Shown: in pieces, positions 48,568 through 58,310 of the stretch
Numbering within the stretch: position 1 is the stretch's first letter
Layout: every line of letters begins with the position of its first letter
Assembly (NCBI GenBank): GCA_016182555.1
Contig: JACPGJ010000007.1
Span: 53-64,052 of the forward strand
DNA length: 64,000 bases
Direction: 5' to 3'
From: Candidatus Kerfeldbacteria bacterium
GTDB lineage: Bacteria; Patescibacteriota; Patescibacteriia; UBA9570; XYC2-FULL-38-9
Translations under genes and position numbers: made by a program
The notes under the pieces: generated by a model
The model's input: the letters and a program-made list of their open reading frames with translations, nothing else
The model's database searches: none
Told to the model about the DNA's origin: nothing

Positions 48568-50217
48568 TTACATTTTTTCTGGTGCGCTCACGCCCAACAG
48601 CTTCAACACGCTGTGCAACACGGTTTGAGTGGCCACCACCAGCGCATACCGCGTCACCTGCACTTCTCCATTATCAATCACCCGGCACTGGCCGTAAAAA
48701 TGGTGAAACGATCGCGCAAGATCTAAGGCATACGTGGGCAAGCGGTGCACTTCATACGTGCGGGCAATGTCTTTTAATAACTCTGGTAATACCATCAGCT
48801 CTTTCAACAACGCTTTTTCGGCAGCGTGTTCCACGAGCAACCCTTTCAGCGGCGGAGCGCCCAATTGCCCCACCTCTCGCAAAATACTGCACATTCGCGC
48901 ATGGGCGTACTGTACATAATAGACCGGGTTTTTGTCCGACTGTTCTTTTGCCAAGCCCAAATCAAAATTCATGTGGCTGTTGGCCGAATACAGTAAAAAG
49001 AAAAACCGCGCGGCGTCGTTACCGACTTCATCAATGAGTTCTTCAATCGTCACAAAATTTCCTTGCCGCTTACTCATACGCATCTCTTTGCCGTCGCGGA
49101 TCAACGTGACCATTTGCGTAAACAGAATATCGAATTCCGTATCAGCATTCAACAATTTCGGCACGGCTTTGAGGCGGTGCTCATAGCCGTGGTGATCTGC
49201 ACCCAAAATAAGCACCACTTTACGTACATGTCGGCGAAATGCCCGGTCATAAAACAGTGCTATATCGCCTTGCATATATGCACCATCTCCCGTGCTCTTC
49301 ACAATCACTCGGTCTTTGTCATCACCATACGCACTTGTCCGTACCCACAACGCGCCGTTCTGTTCGTACACATTTCCCGCTTCACGCAATTTCGCCAGCA
49401 TCTTCTCTGGTACGCCATCATCATACAACGATTTTTCAGAAAACCAGTTGTCATAATGAATTTGCATTTTTTCTTCAACCACACGTTTGATATCCGCAAT
49501 CATCAACCGCAATGCTAATACTGTTATGCGCTGCCGAATCCACTCGGCTTTTTTGCCGTGGTTCAACTTGTAATCTTTCAATGCGAGCTTTGTGGCGAGC
49601 TCACTAATATATTCACCTTGGTACAATTCGTCGGCATAATCCACCTTAATCCCTTGATTCTGCAAATAGCGCCGCATCACGGATTCGCCCAATACCTCCA
49701 CCTGCTTGCCGCGGTCATTCATATAATATTCACGCAGCACCGTAAAACCCGTGGCCGCCAGAATATTCGACAACACATCTCCCAAATATCCCCCGCGCCC
49801 ATTTGGCAGCGTGAGTGGCCCGGTGGGGTTAGCAGACAAAAATTCCACCAACACTTTTTTTCGTTTACCTATGCTGCTGCGACCATACGCTTCTTTCTTT
49901 CGCAGAATCTGTTTCAAGCTTTCGGCATACTGCTGCGTCGAAAGAAAAAAATTCAAAAAACCGGGTGGTGCCACTTGAATATCCGCATACGCACTATCAC
50001 CAGCGAGTAAATGCTGTTTCAATTCTTCCGCAATCATGAGTGGGGGTTTTTTCAGCACACGTGCCAGCTGCATCGCAATATTACTGGCAAAATCTCCGTG
50101 TTCAGGCAGTTCAGGCAAATCAATTGGCAATGGCGGAATATCAAAAACCGGCCAATCACCACTCTGTTGACGCGCAATAATAGCTTCTTGAATATCTTTC
50201 TGAATGCTATCCTTCAT
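48568..50217 (-). CDS. argS: Arginyl-tRNA synthetase
   Basis: FLSANPTGPLTLPNGRGG and MSKRQGNFVTIEELI. Confidence 0.9.
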   Translation of the reverse strand: MKDSIQKDIQEAIIARQQSGDWPVFDIPPLPIDLPELPEHGDFASNIAMQLARVLKKPPLMIAEELKQHLLAGDSAYADIQVAPPGFLNFFLSTQQYAESLKQILRKKEAYGRSSIGKRKKVLVEFLSANPTGPLTLPNGRGGYLGDVLSNILAATGFTVLREYYMNDRGKQVEVLGESVMRRYLQNQGIKVDYADELYQGEYISELATKLALKDYKLNHGKKAEWIRQRITVLALRLMIADIKRVVEEKMQIHYDNWFSEKSLYDDGVPEKMLAKLREAGNVYEQNGALWVRTSAYGDDKDRVIVKSTGDGAYMQGDIALFYDRAFRRHVRKVVLILGADHHGYEHRLKAVPKLLNADTEFDILFTQMVTLIRDGKEMRMSKRQGNFVTIEELIDEVGNDAARFFFLLYSANSHMNFDLGLAKEQSDKNPVYYVQYAHARMCSILREVGQLGAPPLKGLLVEHAAEKALLKELMVLPELLKDIARTYEVHRLPTYALDLARSFHHFYGQCRVIDNGEVQVTRYALVVATQTVLHSVLKLLGVSAPEKM

Positions 50218-51354: not shown

Positions 51355-51873
51355 ATTTCAAACAAAGAATTTCGCAAGAACGAAGAGATTCGCTCGCCAC
51401 AGGTATTCGTGATTAGTGAACAAGGCGAGAAATTAGGCGTCATGTCTATTCAAAGCGCCCTCGATCTTGCACGCGAATCGTTCCTGGATCTTGTCGAAGT
51501 CGGGCCCCAAGCCACACCGCCGGTTGTCAAAATTGTCGATTTTGGCAAGTTACAATACGAGAAAGAGAAACAAGACCGAAAAAATCGCGCTCGATCCAAA
51601 AAAGGTGGCGAGATTAAAGGCATTCGTCTCACGGTGGCAATTAGCGAGCATGACATGAACGTACGTGTGGCATCTGCACAAAAATTTTTGGATAAAGGCG
51701 ATAAGATTAAAGTGGAAATGCGTATGCGTGGGCGTGAAAAAGCTCATCCAGAAGTCGCGCAGAAAACGATTCAGCGCTTTATTGATACACTGGGTCGCGA
51801 CACGGTGCTGGAACAACCGATTAAACGCATGGGCGGCCAGTTCACGGCAATGCTCACACTCAAGAAAAAATAA
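51355..51873 (+). CDS. infC: Translation initiation factor IF-3, probable AUU start
   Basis: Conserved KNEEIRSPQVFVISEQGEKLGVMS lies upstream of the ORF-track GTG (51409) in the same frame. The only start-like codon after in-frame TAA (51340-51342) is ATT at 51355. Confidence 0.8.
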   Translation: MSNKEFRKNEEIRSPQVFVISEQGEKLGVMSIQSALDLARESFLDLVEVGPQATPPVVKIVDFGKLQYEKEKQDRKNRARSKKGGEIKGIRLTVAISEHDMNVRVASAQKFLDKGDKIKVEMRMRGREKAHPEVAQKTIQRFIDTLGRDTVLEQPIKRMGGQFTAMLTLKKK

Positions 51874-52125: not shown

Positions 52126-52476
52126 ATGGCAAGAGTAAAACGAGGATCATCTCACACAAAACATCGCAGTGGTATTTTAAAACAAGCGAAAGGATACTAT
52201 GCTGGCCGCAAAAATTTAATTCGCCAGGCGAAAAACGCGGTACGCAAATCTGGCCAACGCGCATACGACCACCGCAAACAGAAGAAACGCACACGCCGCG
52301 CATTATGGCAAGTGAAGATTAACGCTGCTGCCCGCGCTGCAGGCATAAACTACAGCACATTCATGAACGCATTGACCAAGAAAAACATTTTGGTGGACCG
52401 CAAAATTCTGGCAACGCTGGCAGAACACCACCCCGCATTGTTTGATAAAATTGTTGCTGAAGTAAAAAAGAAATAG
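52126..52476 (+). CDS. rplT: 50S ribosomal protein L20
   Basis: MARVKRGSSHTKHR ... typical L20. Confidence 0.9.
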   Translation: MARVKRGSSHTKHRSGILKQAKGYYAGRKNLIRQAKNAVRKSGQRAYDHRKQKKRTRRALWQVKINAAARAAGINYSTFMNALTKKNILVDRKILATLAEHHPALFDKIVAEVKKK

Positions 52477-52545: not shown

Positions 52546-52619
52546 GGGGGTGTAGCTCAGTTGGTTAGAGCGCTTCCCTGTCACGGAAGAGGCCGCGGGT
52601 TCGAGTCCCGTCACTCCCG
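52546..52619 (+). tRNA. tRNA-Asp (anticodon GTC)
   Basis: Cloverleaf: acceptor GGGGGUG/CACUCCC with G73, U8-A9, D-arm GCUCAGUUGGUUAGAGC, anticodon stem CUUCC/GGAAG, loop CUGUCAC, T-arm GCGGG-UUCGAGU-CCCGU. CCA not encoded. Confidence 0.9.
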
Positions 52620-52650
52620 CAAACGGAACCTTGTTCGAACGAAAAAAGAA
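52611..52650 (+). repeat. attL-like direct repeat: tRNA-Asp 3' end plus downstream flank (core CTCCCGCAAACGGAA)
   Basis: Copied imperfectly at 57411-57450: 15-nt identical core and about 36 of 42 positions overall. Confidence 0.6.
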
Positions 52651-52737
52651 AGCCGCTAGTCATAACGATTTTTCTTGTTGGAAAGACAAAGCAACATTAC
52701 TCTATTCAAAACAGAGTGATTTAGGTATTATAGGATT

Positions 52738-53002
52738 ATGACTTTTACTGAAAAAGAAAATATTATTAAACAAGCAGCTAAGCAGTATACTCGAGAGCAT
52801 AAGAAAGAATTTTATGAAAAAGTTGTTATCAAAAATATTTTCCCAGAAAGAAACAAAAACAGATCCGTTTTCAGATTTTTTTAGAAACACAGATTCTCGT
52901 CACAAAACCAAAGTATTAAAAAAAGTGGCAAGAAAGGCAAATGAAGATCAGCGAAAATTAATAGAAAAAAATCATCGCTTATCTGGCGATTCTGCAATAT
53001 AA
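52738..53002 (+). pseudogene. Two overlapping small ORFs (48 and 62 aa) just 3' of tRNA-Asp; possibly one frameshifted gene
   Basis: ORF 52738..52884 and ORF 52814..53002 are in different frames and overlap by about 70 nt. Confidence 0.25.
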
Positions 53003-53163
53003 TATTGGTGTTGCAATACATCCACTCAGAGAACGAAATATATTATTGATTATCATGTTCAAATAAAGACATATTCCTAGAATAATATGCATATTTAAAG
53101 TAAAAAAAGATCCGCCTATTGCCTCCACAATAGACGGATTTTATTACGTGAAAATGTGCGCTC

Positions 53164-53652
53164 TCACTTGCGGTCAAGCTCAATAATTGCTCGAGCGACC
53201 GCTTTGACAGCCGCATTGAGTGCGGCGCCTGTTTGCCCCACAGCGAGGAATGACCGGAGAAAGGACATCCCTCTCCCTATATCCTCCGCCGCACACGATC
53301 GCGTGTACGCCTGCTCTTTCCAGAGGAGAAAGTAGGCAAGATTTCCTCCTTCTCCTTTGTACTCTCCTGCTTTCGCCTTTCGCGCGGCAGCGGTCATGAG
53401 TGCTTCGAGGGACATCCGTGCTTCGCCCTCGAGCCTGAGCGTGTCTTCCAACACGAGCAGTCCGTTCCACATGACACTCCGCTTCTCTTGAGGCAGCCCA
53501 GCGAGGATCTGCTCTTTAGTGATCACAGCAAGCAACTTTTCTCGCCCATCACTTTCTTTCCTCACCTGTTCCGCAATTTCTGCAGGCGTCCCTTGATATG
53601 CCTGCCACACGTTCAAATCACCAGTCTCAACCGTACACTGAATCTGAAACAT
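53164..53652 (-). CDS. Hypothetical protein (162 aa), GC-rich, in the tRNA-Asp island
   Basis: ORF with clearly elevated GC. No recognisable motif. Confidence 0.45.
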   Translation of the reverse strand: MFQIQCTVETGDLNVWQAYQGTPAEIAEQVRKESDGREKLLAVITKEQILAGLPQEKRSVMWNGLLVLEDTLRLEGEARMSLEALMTAAARKAKAGEYKGEGGNLAYFLLWKEQAYTRSCAAEDIGRGMSFLRSFLAVGQTGAALNAAVKAVARAIIELDRK

Positions 53653-53836
53653 ATTTTCTCCTCCTTCTTCGAATTCCTCTTCGTAAGGTTTCCGCCAGCG
53701 AGACCACCCCGCCTACGCTACCTGCCAAAAATTAATTGCCTATTTTAGAATTCTGTAATGCACCCACCAGAGGATGGTGAACGACTTCCCGGTTACCATG
53801 TGAACACCGGGCATTTGGTAGGGACGAAAGGCTAAA

Positions 53837-54388
53837 CTAGAGATATCGTCTTGGAATCCAGTCGTCCTTTACGAATTCTCGACTTCCTTTCGGAAGCAGA
53901 ATTTCATAATCGAACTCGGAATCCATGTAAGAGAACACTGTCGGTTTTTCACCAACAATTATCTCTTCGTGGCCGATACGCTGCTTCCCTTTTGGAAAAG
54001 CAAAGTACCGTTCGATGGTACCGCCATGGTTGTGGTTGGTTATATCGAATACCACCAAACCATGGGTTGATGGAATACGACGAGCTGCAGCTTGCACTTC
54101 AGAAGGAATCTCCTCATCGAGAGTAACAGCTTCCTTTTTCCCCTCAGTCACGAACAGCTGTACGAGCTTGTCCACGTCTTTGGGAAGATTGCAAGTTCTT
54201 CGGCATTTCCCGTCACATTTCCCTTCCACCCTGTACCTGTGCTGGCGGTGCCCAGCATAGAGGTCGTGTGCGATGTGGACATTTCCCACACAGATGTATT
54301 CCACCACGAGAGCGGACTCACCACGCTCCGTCTCATATTCCCTCTCATAGACGAAACCACGGATTGCAGTAATCTTCGAGGTCTTCAT
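53837..54388 (-). CDS. Hypothetical protein (183 aa), GC-rich, His/Cys-rich segment VHIAHDLYAGHRQHRY...GKCDGKC..C
   Basis: ORF with elevated GC. Possible metal-binding cluster. No family assigned. Confidence 0.45.
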   Translation of the reverse strand: MKTSKITAIRGFVYEREYETERGESALVVEYICVGNVHIAHDLYAGHRQHRYRVEGKCDGKCRRTCNLPKDVDKLVQLFVTEGKKEAVTLDEEIPSEVQAAARRIPSTHGLVVFDITNHNHGGTIERYFAFPKGKQRIGHEEIIVGEKPTVFSYMDSEFDYEILLPKGSREFVKDDWIPRRYL

Positions 54389-54589
54389 AGCGTCCTCCTT
54401 CAGTTGTCAAATTTCTTTCTTCAATGTCGAGCTCATCCCGTCACTGAAGAACTGGATATAGTATCCCAAATGCGTAAAAAAGTGAATACAAGTTATTTCA
54501 AAATTTATACATTTTTATTTTATATTTGATTTATTTATAAAAAAATGATATAATTTAAATTGACAAAATAATCAAAAACATTCAAATTT

Positions 54590-55339
54590 ATGAATATCCA
54601 CAAACGTTTACAAAGCATTGGCCTGACTCAATCAGAAACCGACATCTACCTCTTTCTCCTCCAAAATAGCCTTTCCTCTCCCCCTGTCATTGCAAAAGGC
54701 ACCGGAATTGCCCGCACCAATTGCTATCACATTCTCCAAAGTCTCAAAGAAAAACAATTGATATCCGAACAATCCATCTCAAAAGGAAAACGCAAAGCCT
54801 ATGTTGCTTGCGATCCACAGGCGCTCATCGAATCAATGAACCGAAAAACTGCAGCAGCGCAAGAATTGCTTCCTGATCTAAGAGCCCTATATACCGTACA
54901 AAAAAATAAACCGCTTATCCGATTCTTTGATGGATTTGAAGAGGTAAAGCAGATCTATGATCAATCGCTCACAGCAAAAAAAATTATGGGAATTGGTTCA
55001 ACAAAGCGCTTACAAGAACTCGATCCGCAATTCTATACGCATTATCTAAAACAAGTGCAAAAAAAAGGAATTGTATTTTATGATATTCTTTCACATCCAT
55101 CTGGCGAACATGCCGGCCCACACATGAAACAAATTGTGAAAGGATTATATGATATGAAACTAATCCCAAAGCAGTATGGCGATTTTGCAACAGATATATT
55201 AATTTGGGAAGATACAATCGCTCTCCTTACACTCGAAGAACCCATTTTTGGCACTACACTCACCAATCCTCTTCTTGCCAACACATTTTTGCTTCTCTTT
55301 AAAGTGTTCTGGGAACAATTGTCGAATTTTGATAATTGA
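54590..55339 (+). CDS. TrmB-family transcriptional regulator
   Basis: N-terminal wHTH LTQSETDIYLFLLQNS...IAKGTGIARTNCYHILQSLKEKQLI. TTGACA about 30 nt upstream. Confidence 0.65.
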   Translation: MNIHKRLQSIGLTQSETDIYLFLLQNSLSSPPVIAKGTGIARTNCYHILQSLKEKQLISEQSISKGKRKAYVACDPQALIESMNRKTAAAQELLPDLRALYTVQKNKPLIRFFDGFEEVKQIYDQSLTAKKIMGIGSTKRLQELDPQFYTHYLKQVQKKGIVFYDILSHPSGEHAGPHMKQIVKGLYDMKLIPKQYGDFATDILIWEDTIALLTLEEPIFGTTLTNPLLANTFLLLFKVFWEQLSNFDN

Positions 55340-55479
55340 TTTTTATGGTAATGAGAAGGAAGGCAGCGGTTGCTTCCCCCGCGCCAACAATGCCTTCCTT
55401 TCCTTCACTCATTTCGCAATTTTTCTATATAACACATTCGAGCAGCAGATAATAAGTTCCGAAAATTTCGGAAAGAAAA

Positions 55480-55549
55480 ATATAGTGTAAACAGGGTGGG
55501 GTTAATCTATGTTCATTTGAGGCACCACCCCTTACACACTATATTTTTT
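55480..55549. terminator. Bidirectional terminator-like long hairpin (ATATAGTGT..GGGTGG / CCACCC..ACACTATAT), A-run before and T6 after, between convergent TrmB genes
   Basis: Inverted repeat and flanking runs seen directly. Confidence 0.5.
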
Positions 55550-55637
55550 GTAACACCCATCTCATCTGTCCTATTGCTAATAAAGTGCTAGATTCAGGTG
55601 TTTAGCTTGAGTTTCATAGCTTTATAAAATTATCTTC

Positions 55638-56432
55638 TTATTTTTGCAATCGCTTACGAATATCTTGATCAAATTTTTCTGAATATTCAAAGGCGAATTC
55701 AAACATTTTTTGTAAGCAATCGGCTATGGGTTTACTTTTAATGACAAGTGCGAAATTTTCTTCGTAAGAAAAAAATATCACCGTGTGCTTATATACATTC
55801 ACTTCAATAGGATAATTACATTCGGCAGGAATAAGTCTAGAATGACGAATATGTTTCTGTTCTGTTTCAAGAGTATGTTGAATATTAAATAGTGTCGCAG
55901 GAATAATAGCTTTCACAGAAATTTTCTTTGCAACACGTTTTTTATAATAATCGGGATATAGGGATGGTAAATATTTCAATTCATCTTCATTACTTCCATA
56001 CCCAATAATGTGATCTGCTTCTTCCAATACTTGTAAAAACGCTTTCTTCATTCCTTCTTTTCCTTCATAGTAATACATTTTCGGTTTTACGGTTTCATAT
56101 TGCTGCATGGCGCGCAATTCTGGCAGCGCTGACTGAATTTTTTGTTCTTGATCTTTCAGTTGTTGCTGACGCTGTTGCACAAAACGGAGAATTTCAGTTG
56201 GATCATCAACAGAAAAGAGATACGTATTTTTTCTTTTCATGCGCTTCACAATATGAAACTCATTACTCAATTTCTGTAGCGCAAGTAATACAGTTGTTTT
56301 AGGAATTTCTAATCTTCGCGCTATTTCTGACGCCTTCTGTGGACTTTTTTTAAGCAATTGTATATAGCAGTGTATTTCCAACTCATCGAGTCCGATATTT
56401 TGTAGAAGGTTGGAAATTGATTGTTCTTTCAT
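55638..56432 (-). CDS. TrmB-family transcriptional regulator (second copy)
   Basis: wHTH LDELEIHCYIQLLKKSPQKASEIARRLEIPKTTVLLALQKL. Confidence 0.65.
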   Translation of the reverse strand: MKEQSISNLLQNIGLDELEIHCYIQLLKKSPQKASEIARRLEIPKTTVLLALQKLSNEFHIVKRMKRKNTYLFSVDDPTEILRFVQQRQQQLKDQEQKIQSALPELRAMQQYETVKPKMYYYEGKEGMKKAFLQVLEEADHIIGYGSNEDELKYLPSLYPDYYKKRVAKKISVKAIIPATLFNIQHTLETEQKHIRHSRLIPAECNYPIEVNVYKHTVIFFSYEENFALVIKSKPIADCLQKMFEFAFEYSEKFDQDIRKRLQK

Positions 56433-56573
56433 ATATCGTCAAAAATTGTTGATGTTTTTTTATCTTTCTTTAGCAAAAATAATGAATATAAATATAAAAT
56501 AAATATACATTATTGTTACCCTATACAGTTATAGTATGTTTGTAAAGCACCTATACAATTCGTGGGGTAACAT

Positions 56574-56795
56574 ATGACATTCCACACTCTTCTTCTTGCA
56601 TTGCTCTATGGTTTTGGTATCACATTCATCAGCTATCCATTGAACGCATGGGAGTACAAATGTCCACGAAGAAAAGCTCTATTCTTTTGTGTAGGAGTAA
56701 TTCTACTGGGTATATATCTGTATTACGATACAATTTCTATACCCGCGCAAACTGATAAACCGCATAAGAAAGGAAATGTACAATGTCAGGAATAA
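56574..56795 (+). CDS. Small membrane protein (73 aa)
   Basis: Two hydrophobic helices. ORF only. Confidence 0.35.
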   Translation: MTFHTLLLALLYGFGITFISYPLNAWEYKCPRRKALFFCVGVILLGIYLYYDTISIPAQTDKPHKKGNVQCQE

Positions 56796-57229
56796 CATTC
56801 CTCATCATTATGTGTGTATATGCCATACACATTGGGATCGCACTCAAGGTTGCAGAGTACATGCGCAAACACCAAACTCCGGAAGGCGCAAAAGAATGGT
56901 CAGTATTTAGCATCATGGGAGCGTTTGGGATAATTGTTCTGTTAGCTCCCAGCGATTCACCTTATTCAGCTCTCTGGCAAATGGATATAGGCGATATCGC
57001 GCTTATCGCATTCTCCGTAACCTATGCGATGATGTATCTTGGTTGGGGCATGATGCAGTGGCATCTCTACAAGATGAACAAATTGTGGAGAGCTCGTTTC
57101 AAACGGAGCATCTTTCTGAGTATCAGTGTCGGACTATTCCTTATATCTGGACTATACACCACCGCACTGCTCAAAAATGCTCCTCACTACTCTCCACCCA
57201 AAAAAGTATGTACTTGTGATTGTTCATAA
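56783..57229 (+). CDS. Small membrane protein (148 aa, 4 TM)
   Basis: Hydrophobic helices. Overlaps the previous ORF by 13 nt. Confidence 0.4.
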   Translation: MSGITFLIIMCVYAIHIGIALKVAEYMRKHQTPEGAKEWSVFSIMGAFGIIVLLAPSDSPYSALWQMDIGDIALIAFSVTYAMMYLGWGMMQWHLYKMNKLWRARFKRSIFLSISVGLFLISGLYTTALLKNAPHYSPPKKVCTCDCS

Positions 57230-57320
57230 GTAGTGATGAAATGGTTCGGCAGTACCAGTTGCGTTGAGAGCTTAGGAGGAGCTTTCCGCACAAAACTGCC
57301 TTTTTTATTTTAAACAGGAT

Positions 57321-57352
57321 GAAAGATATAGTGTGAAGGGGGTGGGGTTAAT
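57321..57352. repeat. Second copy of GAAAGA-ATAGTGT-GGG-GTGGGGTTAAT motif (first copy at 55471-55506)
   Basis: About 27 of 32 positions shared. Sits about 60 bp before the attR-like repeat. Confidence 0.45.
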
Positions 57353-57410
57353 ACAAAAAACTAGACTCCCATTTATTAATATTCTCCACCCAAAATGTTC
57401 AAACAGCGTT

Positions 57411-57450
57411 CACTTGCTCCCGCAAACGGAATATTATTCGAACAAAACAT
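57411..57450 (+). repeat. attR-like direct repeat of the tRNA-Asp 3' end/flank
   Basis: CACTTGCTCCCGCAAACGGAATATTATTCGAACAAAACAT versus tRNA-flank TCACTCCCGCAAACGGAACCTTGTTCGAACGAAAAAAG. Confidence 0.6.
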
Positions 57451-57509
57451 GAAACATACGCTATCTTTTTGACAATGAAGCTATTTTTAGGTATCTTCTA
57501 TATATTCAT

Positions 57510-57689
57510 ATGTCAAAAAAAGATATCGTAAAAGCTTTACAGAAGTATCAAAAATCTCGTCCGAATAGCACCCTGCGACGCAATTATTTGCGTTCATTCA
57601 CACCGAAGATGATTTATCGTACAACAAAAACAGAAAATCCAACCACAACAAAGGCATTAGTGAAAAAAATCTTAGATCAACTCTCATAA
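57510..57689 (+). CDS. Small ORF (59 aa) upstream of fic; candidate FicA-like antitoxin
   Basis: TTKTEN matches the inhibitory [ST]xxxE[GN] motif. Ends 3 nt before the fic ATG. Below the ORF-track size cutoff. Confidence 0.45.
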   Translation: MSKKDIVKALQKYQKSRPNSTLRRNYLRSFTPKMIYRTTKTENPTTTKALVKKILDQLS

Positions 57690-57692
57690 GGT

Positions 57693-58310
57693 ATGCCAAA
57701 AGGCAGGGGTGAAACGAGTTATAAAGATACTGCTTTTGGCATCATTCCTCGTTCAAAACTCATTCCATTAGAAATAGAGGGTATTAAACGTGTCTGGGAT
57801 TTTGTTTTACAGAAACGCCAACAATCTAAAATTCCACTTACTCCAGAATTTCTCAAAAAAATTCATCACGTGGGTTTTGCATGGATATTTCCAGAGATAG
57901 GAGGAAAATTTAGAACTATTGATGTTGAAGTCTCTTTACATACTCCTCCGAAATTTTATCTTGTACCCCAACTCATGAAAGATTTTTGTAATGACTTAAA
58001 AGAACGACTGAAGCATCTTCCATCTATTCAAGAAGAAAACTATCTTGATGAATTAAGTGAATTACTGGCATGGACGCATCACCGATTCCTGTGGATTCAT
58101 CCATTTGCAGATTATAATGGTCGTATTGGTCGTTTGTTAATAAACATTGTGTTATTGAACTTAGATTTGCCAACGATTGAACTACAAGTAGAAACTCCAG
58201 CTGCAAGAAAACGCTATGTGAAAGCGCTACAGGCTGCTGACGAGTATAATCTTGCGCCATTGAAAAAAATAATTGAAAAAGCAATTGAAGAAGCTGTTAA
58301 AGAAATTTAG
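57693..58310 (+). CDS. fic: Fic/Doc-family protein (AMPylator-type)
   Basis: Fic motif HPFADYNGRIGR (HPFx[DE]GNGRxxR). Confidence 0.85.
   Translation: MPKGRGETSYKDTAFGIIPRSKLIPLEIEGIKRVWDFVLQKRQQSKIPLTPEFLKKIHHVGFAWIFPEIGGKFRTIDVEVSLHTPPKFYLVPQLMKDFCNDLKERLKHLPSIQEENYLDELSELLAWTHHRFLWIHPFADYNGRIGRLLINIVLLNLDLPTIELQVETPAARKRYVKALQAADEYNLAPLKKIIEKAIEEAVKEI

Follow-up and report, generated by a model that had tools for sequence, protein, structure and literature searches.

Does a short open reading frame (ORF) in front of a fic gene encode the inhibitory helix that the Fic enzyme itself seems to lack? The question is raised by a 64,000-nt stretch of DNA from a Candidatus Kerfeldbacteria bacterium (hereafter the window; contig JACPGJ010000007.1, positions 53 to 64,052 of the forward strand), in which an ORF of 59 codons directly precedes the gene of a 205-aa Fic protein. 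Regulation of Fic enzymes by a helix with an inhibitory glutamate, in cis or in trans, is well established, and bacteria of the candidate phyla radiation (CPR) have very few known regulatory systems. A sequence-only reading of the window had described the two genes as a FicTA-like module at the border of an island. Our data suggest that they probably form a two-gene operon, in which a FICD-like Fic enzyme receives its inhibitory helix (alpha-inh) in trans from an upstream 59-aa protein of three helices. In window coordinates, the module consists of the following parts.

57469..57497, + strand: promoter-like TTGACA-17 nt-TATCTT, which precedes the small ORF by 13 nt (agrees with the consensus at 10 of 12 positions)
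57510..57689, + strand: small gene, 59 aa, putative trans inhibitory-helix protein (homologues, non-synonymous against synonymous differences (pN/pS), co-conservation)
57621..57638, + strand: codons of T38-T-K-T-E42-N43, a [ST]xxxE[GN] motif in which E42 is the putative inhibitory Glu (conservation and alignment)
57687..57695, + strand: gene junction TAA-GGT-ATG with a 3-nt spacer (sequence)
57693..58310, + strand: fic gene, 205 aa, FICD-like Fic-domain enzyme without an inhibitory helix of its own (Pfam, homologues)
57708..57782, + strand: nearly invariant N-terminal segment GETSYKDTAFGIIPRSKLIPLEIEG, Fic residues 6-30 (invariant columns)
57894..57947, + strand: predicted flap, or target dock, IGGKFRTIDVEVSLHTPP, Fic residues 68-85 (aligns to FICD AGRFRTTQVLVGHHIPP)
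58098..58133, + strand: Fic signature H136-P-F-A-D140-Y141-N142-G143-R144-I-G-R147, residues 136-147, HPFADYNGRIGR

The small gene and its motif

The small ORF is present as the sequence-only reading had it: its product (MSKKDIVKALQKYQKSRPNSTLRRNYLRSFTPKMIYRTTKTENPTTTKALVKKILDQLS) carries TTKTEN at residues 38-43, and it ends 3 nt before the fic ATG. Database records hold it as HYV32_02745, a hypothetical protein. We fetched 80 genomic loci with Fic relatives and read the upstream DNA of 46 close CPR members. In 44 of these 46 loci fic is directly preceded by a small ORF on the same strand (about 56-65 aa), its end lying between -22 and +19 nt from the fic start, frequently with an ATGA overlap. 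The range of spacings and the overlaps point to translational coupling of two separate genes and not to a broken fusion; a recent break is also argued against by the way in which spacings and frames vary between loci. In the window, the small ORF and fic share a reading frame with TAA GGT as the sole separator, which looks like a coincidence, as other loci differ in spacing or frame. Stop-codon readthrough at 57687-57695 would give a single chain resembling class II Fic proteins.

A profile search of a large database with the small protein returned 424 homologues, all annotated as 'hypothetical' and none with a Pfam domain, and genes of 57-59 aa were called beside fic in independent assemblies. 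A single-sequence search with the same ORF gave just 3 proteins, a misleading number that reflects the word-index limit of the tool. Across CPR loci the consensus of the small protein reads ..KYQK....R..YL..FE.KMIYRTTKTENPETT..MV..VL.K. Comparison with the orthologue at a second Kerfeldbacteria locus (UBA9570, hereafter L024) gave pN 0.21 and pS 0.91, with 16, 12 and 36 differences at codon positions 1, 2 and 3. Moreover, the distances between small proteins follow those between their Fic partners (Mantel r 0.67 for 40 pairs; none of 5000 permutations reached this r). Judged by these patterns the small ORF is a real gene, which is under purifying selection and is inherited together with fic, and the claim that it has homologues and is co-conserved with fic is borne out. 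The outcome is a so far unannotated family of at least 424 members, with no Pfam model, that can be read as the partner of a Fic family with a broad distribution among Patescibacteria, and the small gene can be given a name.

How much does the motif itself tell? Shuffling the small ORF yields a [ST]xxxE[GN] pattern in 1.1% of cases, and shuffling the Fic protein yields one in 8.5%, so a single occurrence is weak evidence and it is the conservation that gives it significance. The 123 small proteins compared have TTKTEN (115), TTKSEN (6), TTKGEN (1) or TTKMEH (1); that is, T38xxxE42N43 is kept, as TTK[TSG]EN, in 122 of them. M34, Y36, R37, T38, K40 and E42 are invariant, and N43 is found in at least 90%. 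A divergent relative of 82 aa (P0274) has FRTTKLEGEP, with E-G instead of E-N; this is the class II variant of the motif, and the protein may be an intermediate form.

Two further observations concern the gene as such. The promoter-like site at 57469..57497 is a consensus match only, of a kind no commoner in the region than in shuffles, and L024 also has TTGACA in the corresponding position. A terminator-like site was not found at the module, and the next gene is convergent on the opposite strand. Separately, MAFFT repeatedly placed small-protein RRNYLRSFTPKM...KKILDQLS on RKRYVKALQAAD...KKIIEKAIEE at the Fic C-terminus (57510-57689 versus 58200-58300), a match of Lys-rich helices that is probably compositional.

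The Fic protein and its kinship with class II

The 205-aa protein belongs to the Fic domain family PF02661 (E 2.7e-16, 60.6 bits with a gathering cutoff of 24), the match extending over residues 48-154 and over the whole 93-position profile. An identical protein is recorded as 'Fic family protein' from a Candidatus Kerfeldbacteria metagenome-assembled genome (MAG). More than 624 homologues with 62-84% identity were found in Patescibacteria, and the 120 listed ones have 199-225 aa. The sequence-only reading was right about the Fic domain and wrong in calling the active site canonical: in 120 of 120 homologues Tyr replaces the first Gly of the canonical motif, giving HPFxDYNGRxxR. AMPylation-competent Fic proteins have the signature HxFx(D/E)GNGRxxR, and those that deviate from it are considered to have other activities (PMC3667792). 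HPFADYNGRIGR departs from the strict form by the Tyr at position 6 and conforms at the other positions; H136, D140, N142, the second Gly, R144 (the first signature arginine, R1) and R147 (the second, R2) are invariant among the 120 homologues. A literature search for a DYNGR Fic motif or for Fic proteins of Patescibacteria found nothing relevant. The change of the signature in every member of this family is new, and may mean a different substrate; the annotation of the motif as canonical should be given up.

Outside the signature, the predicted flap sequence GGKFRTIDVEVSLHTPP is well conserved and aligns to the flap region of FICD, with G71, R74, S81, P85 and P86 invariant. Fic residues 19-30 align to the FICD segment just past alpha-inh, GKSLEEQNEVIG. 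The stretch GETSYK(D/E)TAFGIIPRS (57708-57755, Fic residues 6-21) is nearly invariant and falls in the insertion that separates the pair from class II proteins at the gene junction. It could serve as an N-terminal lock, or as a pseudo-substrate with a modifiable Tyr10, in the manner of the DPY lock that has been proposed for FicT proteins (PMC5033356).

An internal [ST]xxxE[GN] is absent from 116 of the 120 Fic homologues; the Fic protein thus has no conserved inhibitory motif of its own, which would have told against the sequence-only reading. Two candidates within the chain were considered and rejected. SIQEEN (at Fic residue 111) lies in the middle of the domain, is unique to the window protein and is not conserved. 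LEIEG, in the invariant block FGIIPRSKLIPLEIEG, could be taken for the SxxIEG motif of class II; it aligns to FICD NEVIG, past alpha-inh. The profile alignment to human FICD puts PRSKLIPLEIEGI on GKSLEEQNEVIGM, the segment that follows alpha-inh, and in the AlphaFold2 (AF2) model the long first helix of the Fic core begins with the LEIEG block. The Fic polypeptide thus has no alpha-inh.

To which Fic proteins is the core related? A profile of 27 Fic homologues was searched against all PDB sequences, and human FICD came top with E about 1e-20, followed by C. elegans FIC-1 and the bacterial class II proteins SoFic, BT_2513 and CdFic. The EcFic-like chain 8wt0 reached only E 6.6e-4 in the same ranking, and VbhT was not among the matches. 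The next-nearest genomic relatives (L053-L080, 30-40% identity) come from Proteobacteria, Actinobacteria and Cyanobacteria and have about 324-447 aa, mostly about 390. All of them carry the canonical HPFxDGNGRxxR or HPFxNGNGRxxR and, except for L060, an internal SNLIEG or SARIEG about 140 residues ahead of the catalytic His.

Next, every small protein was concatenated with the Fic protein of its own locus, and the resulting sequences were used for a profile search with HMMER and for hhalign. In the HMMER search, small-protein residues 20-57 fell on FICD directly N-terminal to the Fic match. In this register YRTTKTEN stands on FICD YHTVAIEG, and E42 matches the Glu of TVAIEG; we take that Glu to be the inhibitory Glu234. 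With hhalign, the concatenated pair could be aligned to 26 class II Fic proteins in a single colinear stretch (E 2e-32, 238 columns, 24% identity), in which TTKTEN stands on SNLIEG and a 17-residue insertion falls exactly at the gene junction. When phmmer was run on the two window proteins as one sequence, its matches stopped short of alpha-inh; the concatenated profile alone reached it. No protein with the small-protein segment fused to a Fic domain was found by an exhaustive profile search of 1.84 billion representatives, which found 36 clusters; two of its hits, P0272 and P0259, were set aside as repetitive, unrelated proteins. In terms of alignment the pair looks like a class II Fic enzyme, one with N-terminal alpha-inh, whose alpha-inh segment has been placed on a separate gene in the layout of class I.

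Structure prediction is in line with such an arrangement. The two window proteins were artificially joined as a single chain and modelled by AF2 with 46 rows for the small protein and only 5 for Fic. The model has a mean predicted local distance difference test score (pLDDT) of 85 and a predicted template modelling score (pTM) of 0.86, with pLDDT 86-96 in the small part, where helices are predicted at 3-15, 21-42 and 48-58; the small protein modelled alone has the same helices at pLDDT 86. TTKTEN would lie at the C-terminus of the predicted helix 21-42, and SRRLEG of EcFicA is likewise at the C-terminal end of a helix (PMC5033356). Confidence is low at the junction and the predicted flap (in AMPylating Fic enzymes a beta-hairpin between alpha2 and alpha3; here pLDDT below 50 at joined residues 128-136) and also at Fic residues 3-15; the weakness at the flap is due to the alignment, with its 5 Fic rows. 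A Foldseek search of the PDB with the joined model ranked FICD top over about 260 columns, with other class II proteins next.

Comparison with characterised systems gives the same mixed picture. Class I pairs (VbhT/VbhA; EcFicT/EcFicA, which is Fic/YhfG; Fic-1/AntF) have in common with ours the small same-strand gene immediately upstream of fic, a small protein with [S/T]xxxE[G/N] at a helix C-terminus, and the conserved R2 (PMC3667792, PMC5033356). VbhT is also similar in its length of about 200 aa and in having the catalytic His at residue 136. In contrast, the small protein has no detectable similarity of sequence or fold to VbhA, FicA or YhfG, the motif is in the first helix of class I antitoxins and in the second of three predicted helices here, and the Fic core, with Tyr where these class I pairs have Gly, is related much more closely to FICD and class II than to FicT. 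Class II enzymes (human FICD/HYPE, C. elegans FIC-1, SoFic and bacterial Fic proteins of about 390 aa with SNLIEG or SARIEG) are the closest by sequence. They have the same order of alpha-inh, following helix, alpha1, flap and active site, colinear over both CPR genes, and FICD in particular shares the YxTxxxE[GN] core and gives the best fold match of the predicted joined pair. They differ in that alpha-inh is within the Fic polypeptide, whereas here it would be on a separate one with about 17 extra residues at the junction; in length, about 390-460 aa versus 205 aa with neither tetratricopeptide repeats nor extra C-terminal domains; and in DGNGR versus DYNGR.

The description as a FicTA-like class I module is supported, with a reservation as to descent. 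Layout and motif agree with it (44/46 loci, 122/123 small proteins) and descent from FicT/FicA does not, FICD being closest; the pair is class I by gene layout and is not a relative of FicT/FicA by descent. Nor did a homology of the small ORF to FicA/VbhA-type antitoxins find support, since PDB, Pfam and Foldseek searches gave no match. The pair thereby links classes I and II, and shows that genes laid out as in class I can have a common origin with a class II enzyme, and not solely with the FicT/FicA lineages. Two other families come near the Fic protein. TIGR02613, 'mobile mystery protein B', has a similar length (about 200 aa), and its 186-position profile is matched end to end by Fic residues 20-192, but the 55.6 bits are far under the cutoff of 124.4 and place the protein outside the family. 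The usual partner in that family, mobile mystery protein A, is a helix-turn-helix protein, and the small protein gave no helix-turn-helix match in NCBIfam or Pfam. The other is the PADLOC entry PDC-S04, a short Fic protein matched at full length by residues 14-199 (E 6e-26), which is an unvalidated single-gene candidate.

Proposed mechanism and its rivals

If the two proteins work as their alignment with class II suggests, the small protein would bind the Fic core, and Glu42, capped by Asn43, would take the position of the ATP gamma-phosphate at Arg147 (R2). ATP would then be held non-productively, and AMP transfer would stay off while the two proteins remain bound; once the small protein is lost or displaced, the transferase would become active. 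By means of Glu42 the complex may, in addition, take the modification off again. In FICD, the same glutamate is needed for deAMPylation. We infer the binding, the Glu42-Arg147 contact and the inhibition, as well as the nucleotide, the target and any toxicity of the free enzyme, and the placement of the helices and the packing of the pair are predicted by the model. The action of the inhibitory glutamate against R2 has been described for Fic classes I-III (PMC3667792), and the antitoxin glutamate is needed for deAMPylation in the Fic-1-AntF pair (PMC13327609). We consider this account of a FICD-like enzyme inhibited in trans probable.

Several points weigh against it. Four homologues of the small protein have ER or EH in place of E[GN]. 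With its invariant Tyr141 the enzyme deviates from the signature by which AMPylation is predicted, so that ATP may not be the substrate. The small protein alone aligns with class II in the right register by hhalign, but with E 0.89, and its part of the FICD alignment scores 1 bit. Its profile gave only chance matches to amyloid precursor E2 in the PDB (HMMER, E up to 10); neither the small ORF nor a set of 37 members (E up to 10) gave VbhA, YhfG or Fic_N in Pfam, NCBIfam and PADLOC had no match to it, and a Foldseek search with its model gave nothing significant. The homology claim for the small protein hence rests on colinearity and register, as the protein is too short for an independent score. 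As to the model, the query-normalised template modelling score (TMq) of 0.70 with FICD is attainable by the Fic part alone, and AF2, given artificially joined chains and 5 Fic rows, may merely recall class II folds.

Other explanations of the locus can be considered. That the small ORF is a chance ORF, or that a nonsense mutation has split a class II fic in this genome, would fit the shared frame with one stop between the ORFs, the 3 homologues of the first single-sequence search and the low information content of the motif alone. We reject this as next to impossible, since the two-gene layout occurs in 44 loci with many spacings and frames, 424 small proteins and no fused protein emerged from profile searches, the listed Fic homologues are all of the same short size (199-225 aa) and the small ORF is under purifying selection. 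A classical type II toxin-antitoxin (TA) or abortive-infection module is harder to dismiss: a labile antitoxin, lost under stress or phage attack, would free a Fic toxin that, for example, AMPylates GyrB/ParE like FicT. The class I layout, in which a small gene comes first and its stop codon abuts or overlaps the start codon of fic, agrees with this, and so do the gene neighbourhoods that vary among genomes, the deep sequence relationships that do not track taxonomy (Kerfeldbacteria copies, at 60-67%, are no closer than those of other phyla), the matches of the Fic protein to the phage-defence candidate PDC-S04 and to SoFic (E 4e-18), and the position next to a tRNA-linked insertion. However, PDC-S04 is unvalidated, FicT toxins are not relatives (E 6.6e-4 for 8wt0 versus 1e-20 for FICD, and VbhT absent), and the small protein resembles none of VbhA, FicA and YhfG. 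Nor was any close family member found in IMG/VR viral contigs, and the module lies outside the insertion, beside tRNA-Asp in its relative too. The neighbours elsewhere are housekeeping-like (def, relA/spoT, parAB, dxs, NUDIX; one locus has a restriction-modification system). Taken together, an addiction or defence role seems to us unlikely.

A further rival concerns Tyr141 itself. It may stand for a changed chemistry, such as another nucleotide or phosphodiester donor, kinase-like transfer or a mainly hydrolytic de-modification, with the small protein as an obligate catalytic or structural subunit and not an off-switch. The replacement by Tyr of the GNG motif's first Gly, seen in all 120 of 120 homologues, speaks for this, as do R37 and K40 of the small protein, which are invariant though outside the known motif. 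Fic proteins off the signature are considered to have other activities, AnkX (DANGR..V) being a phosphocholinase (PMC3667792); EcFicT, with a degenerate motif, has no detectable adenylylation (PMC5033356), and antitoxin-dependent deAMPylation is known (PMC13327609). Against it, none of the other catalytic residues of the AMPylation signature varies (H, D, N, second G, R1, R2), the flap resembles that of FICD in sequence, and Ala is tolerated at the Tyr141 position in active enzymes. We regard such a change as possible but doubtful; a different donor or chemistry at Tyr141 can go together with either inhibition in trans or a TA module. The boldest reading of the pair sees in it not an addiction or defence TA but a CPR-wide, long-maintained two-subunit FICD-like enzyme, in which Glu42 of the small subunit decides whether a nucleotide-derived modification is put on a core cellular protein or taken off it, and Tyr141 gives a specificity for nucleotide or target unseen in characterised Fic enzymes. 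This is speculative and on balance improbable; if true, the two-subunit enzyme would be a reversible protein-modification switch in bacteria with very small genomes that are likely symbiotic. The biological interest of the pair hinges on its target and chemistry in CPR bacteria.

The tRNA-Asp insertion and the wider distribution

Upstream of the module, the window has a tRNA-Asp gene and an insertion with the following features.

52546..52651, + strand: tRNA-Asp (52546-52620) with the attL-like repeat copy (52614-52651) (context)
53164-53652, - strand, and 53837-54388, - strand: ORFs without a Pfam hit
54590-55339, + strand, and 55638-56432, - strand: TrmB-like regulators
56574-56795 and 56783-57229: small membrane ORFs
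57417..57454, + strand: attR-like repeat copy, 84% identical to 52614-52651 over 38 nt

The first copy of the repeat takes in the last 7 nt of tRNA-Asp and continues past the gene on its downstream side; the attR-like copy ends 56 nt ahead of the small ORF. Thus an imperfect 38-nt direct repeat flanks an insertion of about 4.8 kb (52621-57416) between tRNA-Asp and the Fic module, and the sequence-only reading was correct in placing an attR-like repeat directly before the module and the module itself at the border of an island. No integrase or recombinase was found in the 4.8-kb insertion. In L024 the insertion is absent, and tRNA-Asp precedes the small ORF by about 110 nt, with no feature in the gap. 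From this arrangement, the module stood next to tRNA-Asp ancestrally, and the insertion came in between the two. We therefore rejected the module as cargo of a tRNA-Asp island: it borders the insertion without being part of it, as it lies outside the repeats and adjoins tRNA-Asp in L024.

Nearly all members of the family come from MAGs of Patescibacteria. Identity of the Fic proteins is about 60-69% between most pairs regardless of the labelled phylum (60-67% within Kerfeldbacteria), and some labelled sister MAGs share 81-92%; the pattern is compatible with either old vertical descent under strong constraint or lateral spread. A tRNA gene, of varying identity, is present within flanks of about 3 kb in 8 of 41 loci scanned. 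Pairs of the CPR type (61-67% identity) also occur on MAGs labelled Omnitrophota, Gammaproteobacteria, Desantisbacteria and Pseudomonadales (L005, L011, L018, L026, L033 and L047), which may be mis-binned CPR contigs or cases of lateral transfer.

Some minor features of the region should be mentioned. An independent assembly of the same sequence (L081, the Logan assembly of SRR12113422) ends 233 nt upstream of the small ORF; an end at the repeated tRNA-Asp-derived sequence is consistent with the repeat breaking short-read assembly. The infC (51409-51873) and rplT (52126-52476) genes precede tRNA-Asp, so that the Fic module stands beside a cluster of core translation genes. Finally, a 32-nt repeat with 88% identity (GAAA.ATATAGTGT.AA..GGGTGGGGTTAAT) occupies intergenic positions in the insertion at 55475-55506 and 57321-57352, and has a weak third copy at 49944-49975.

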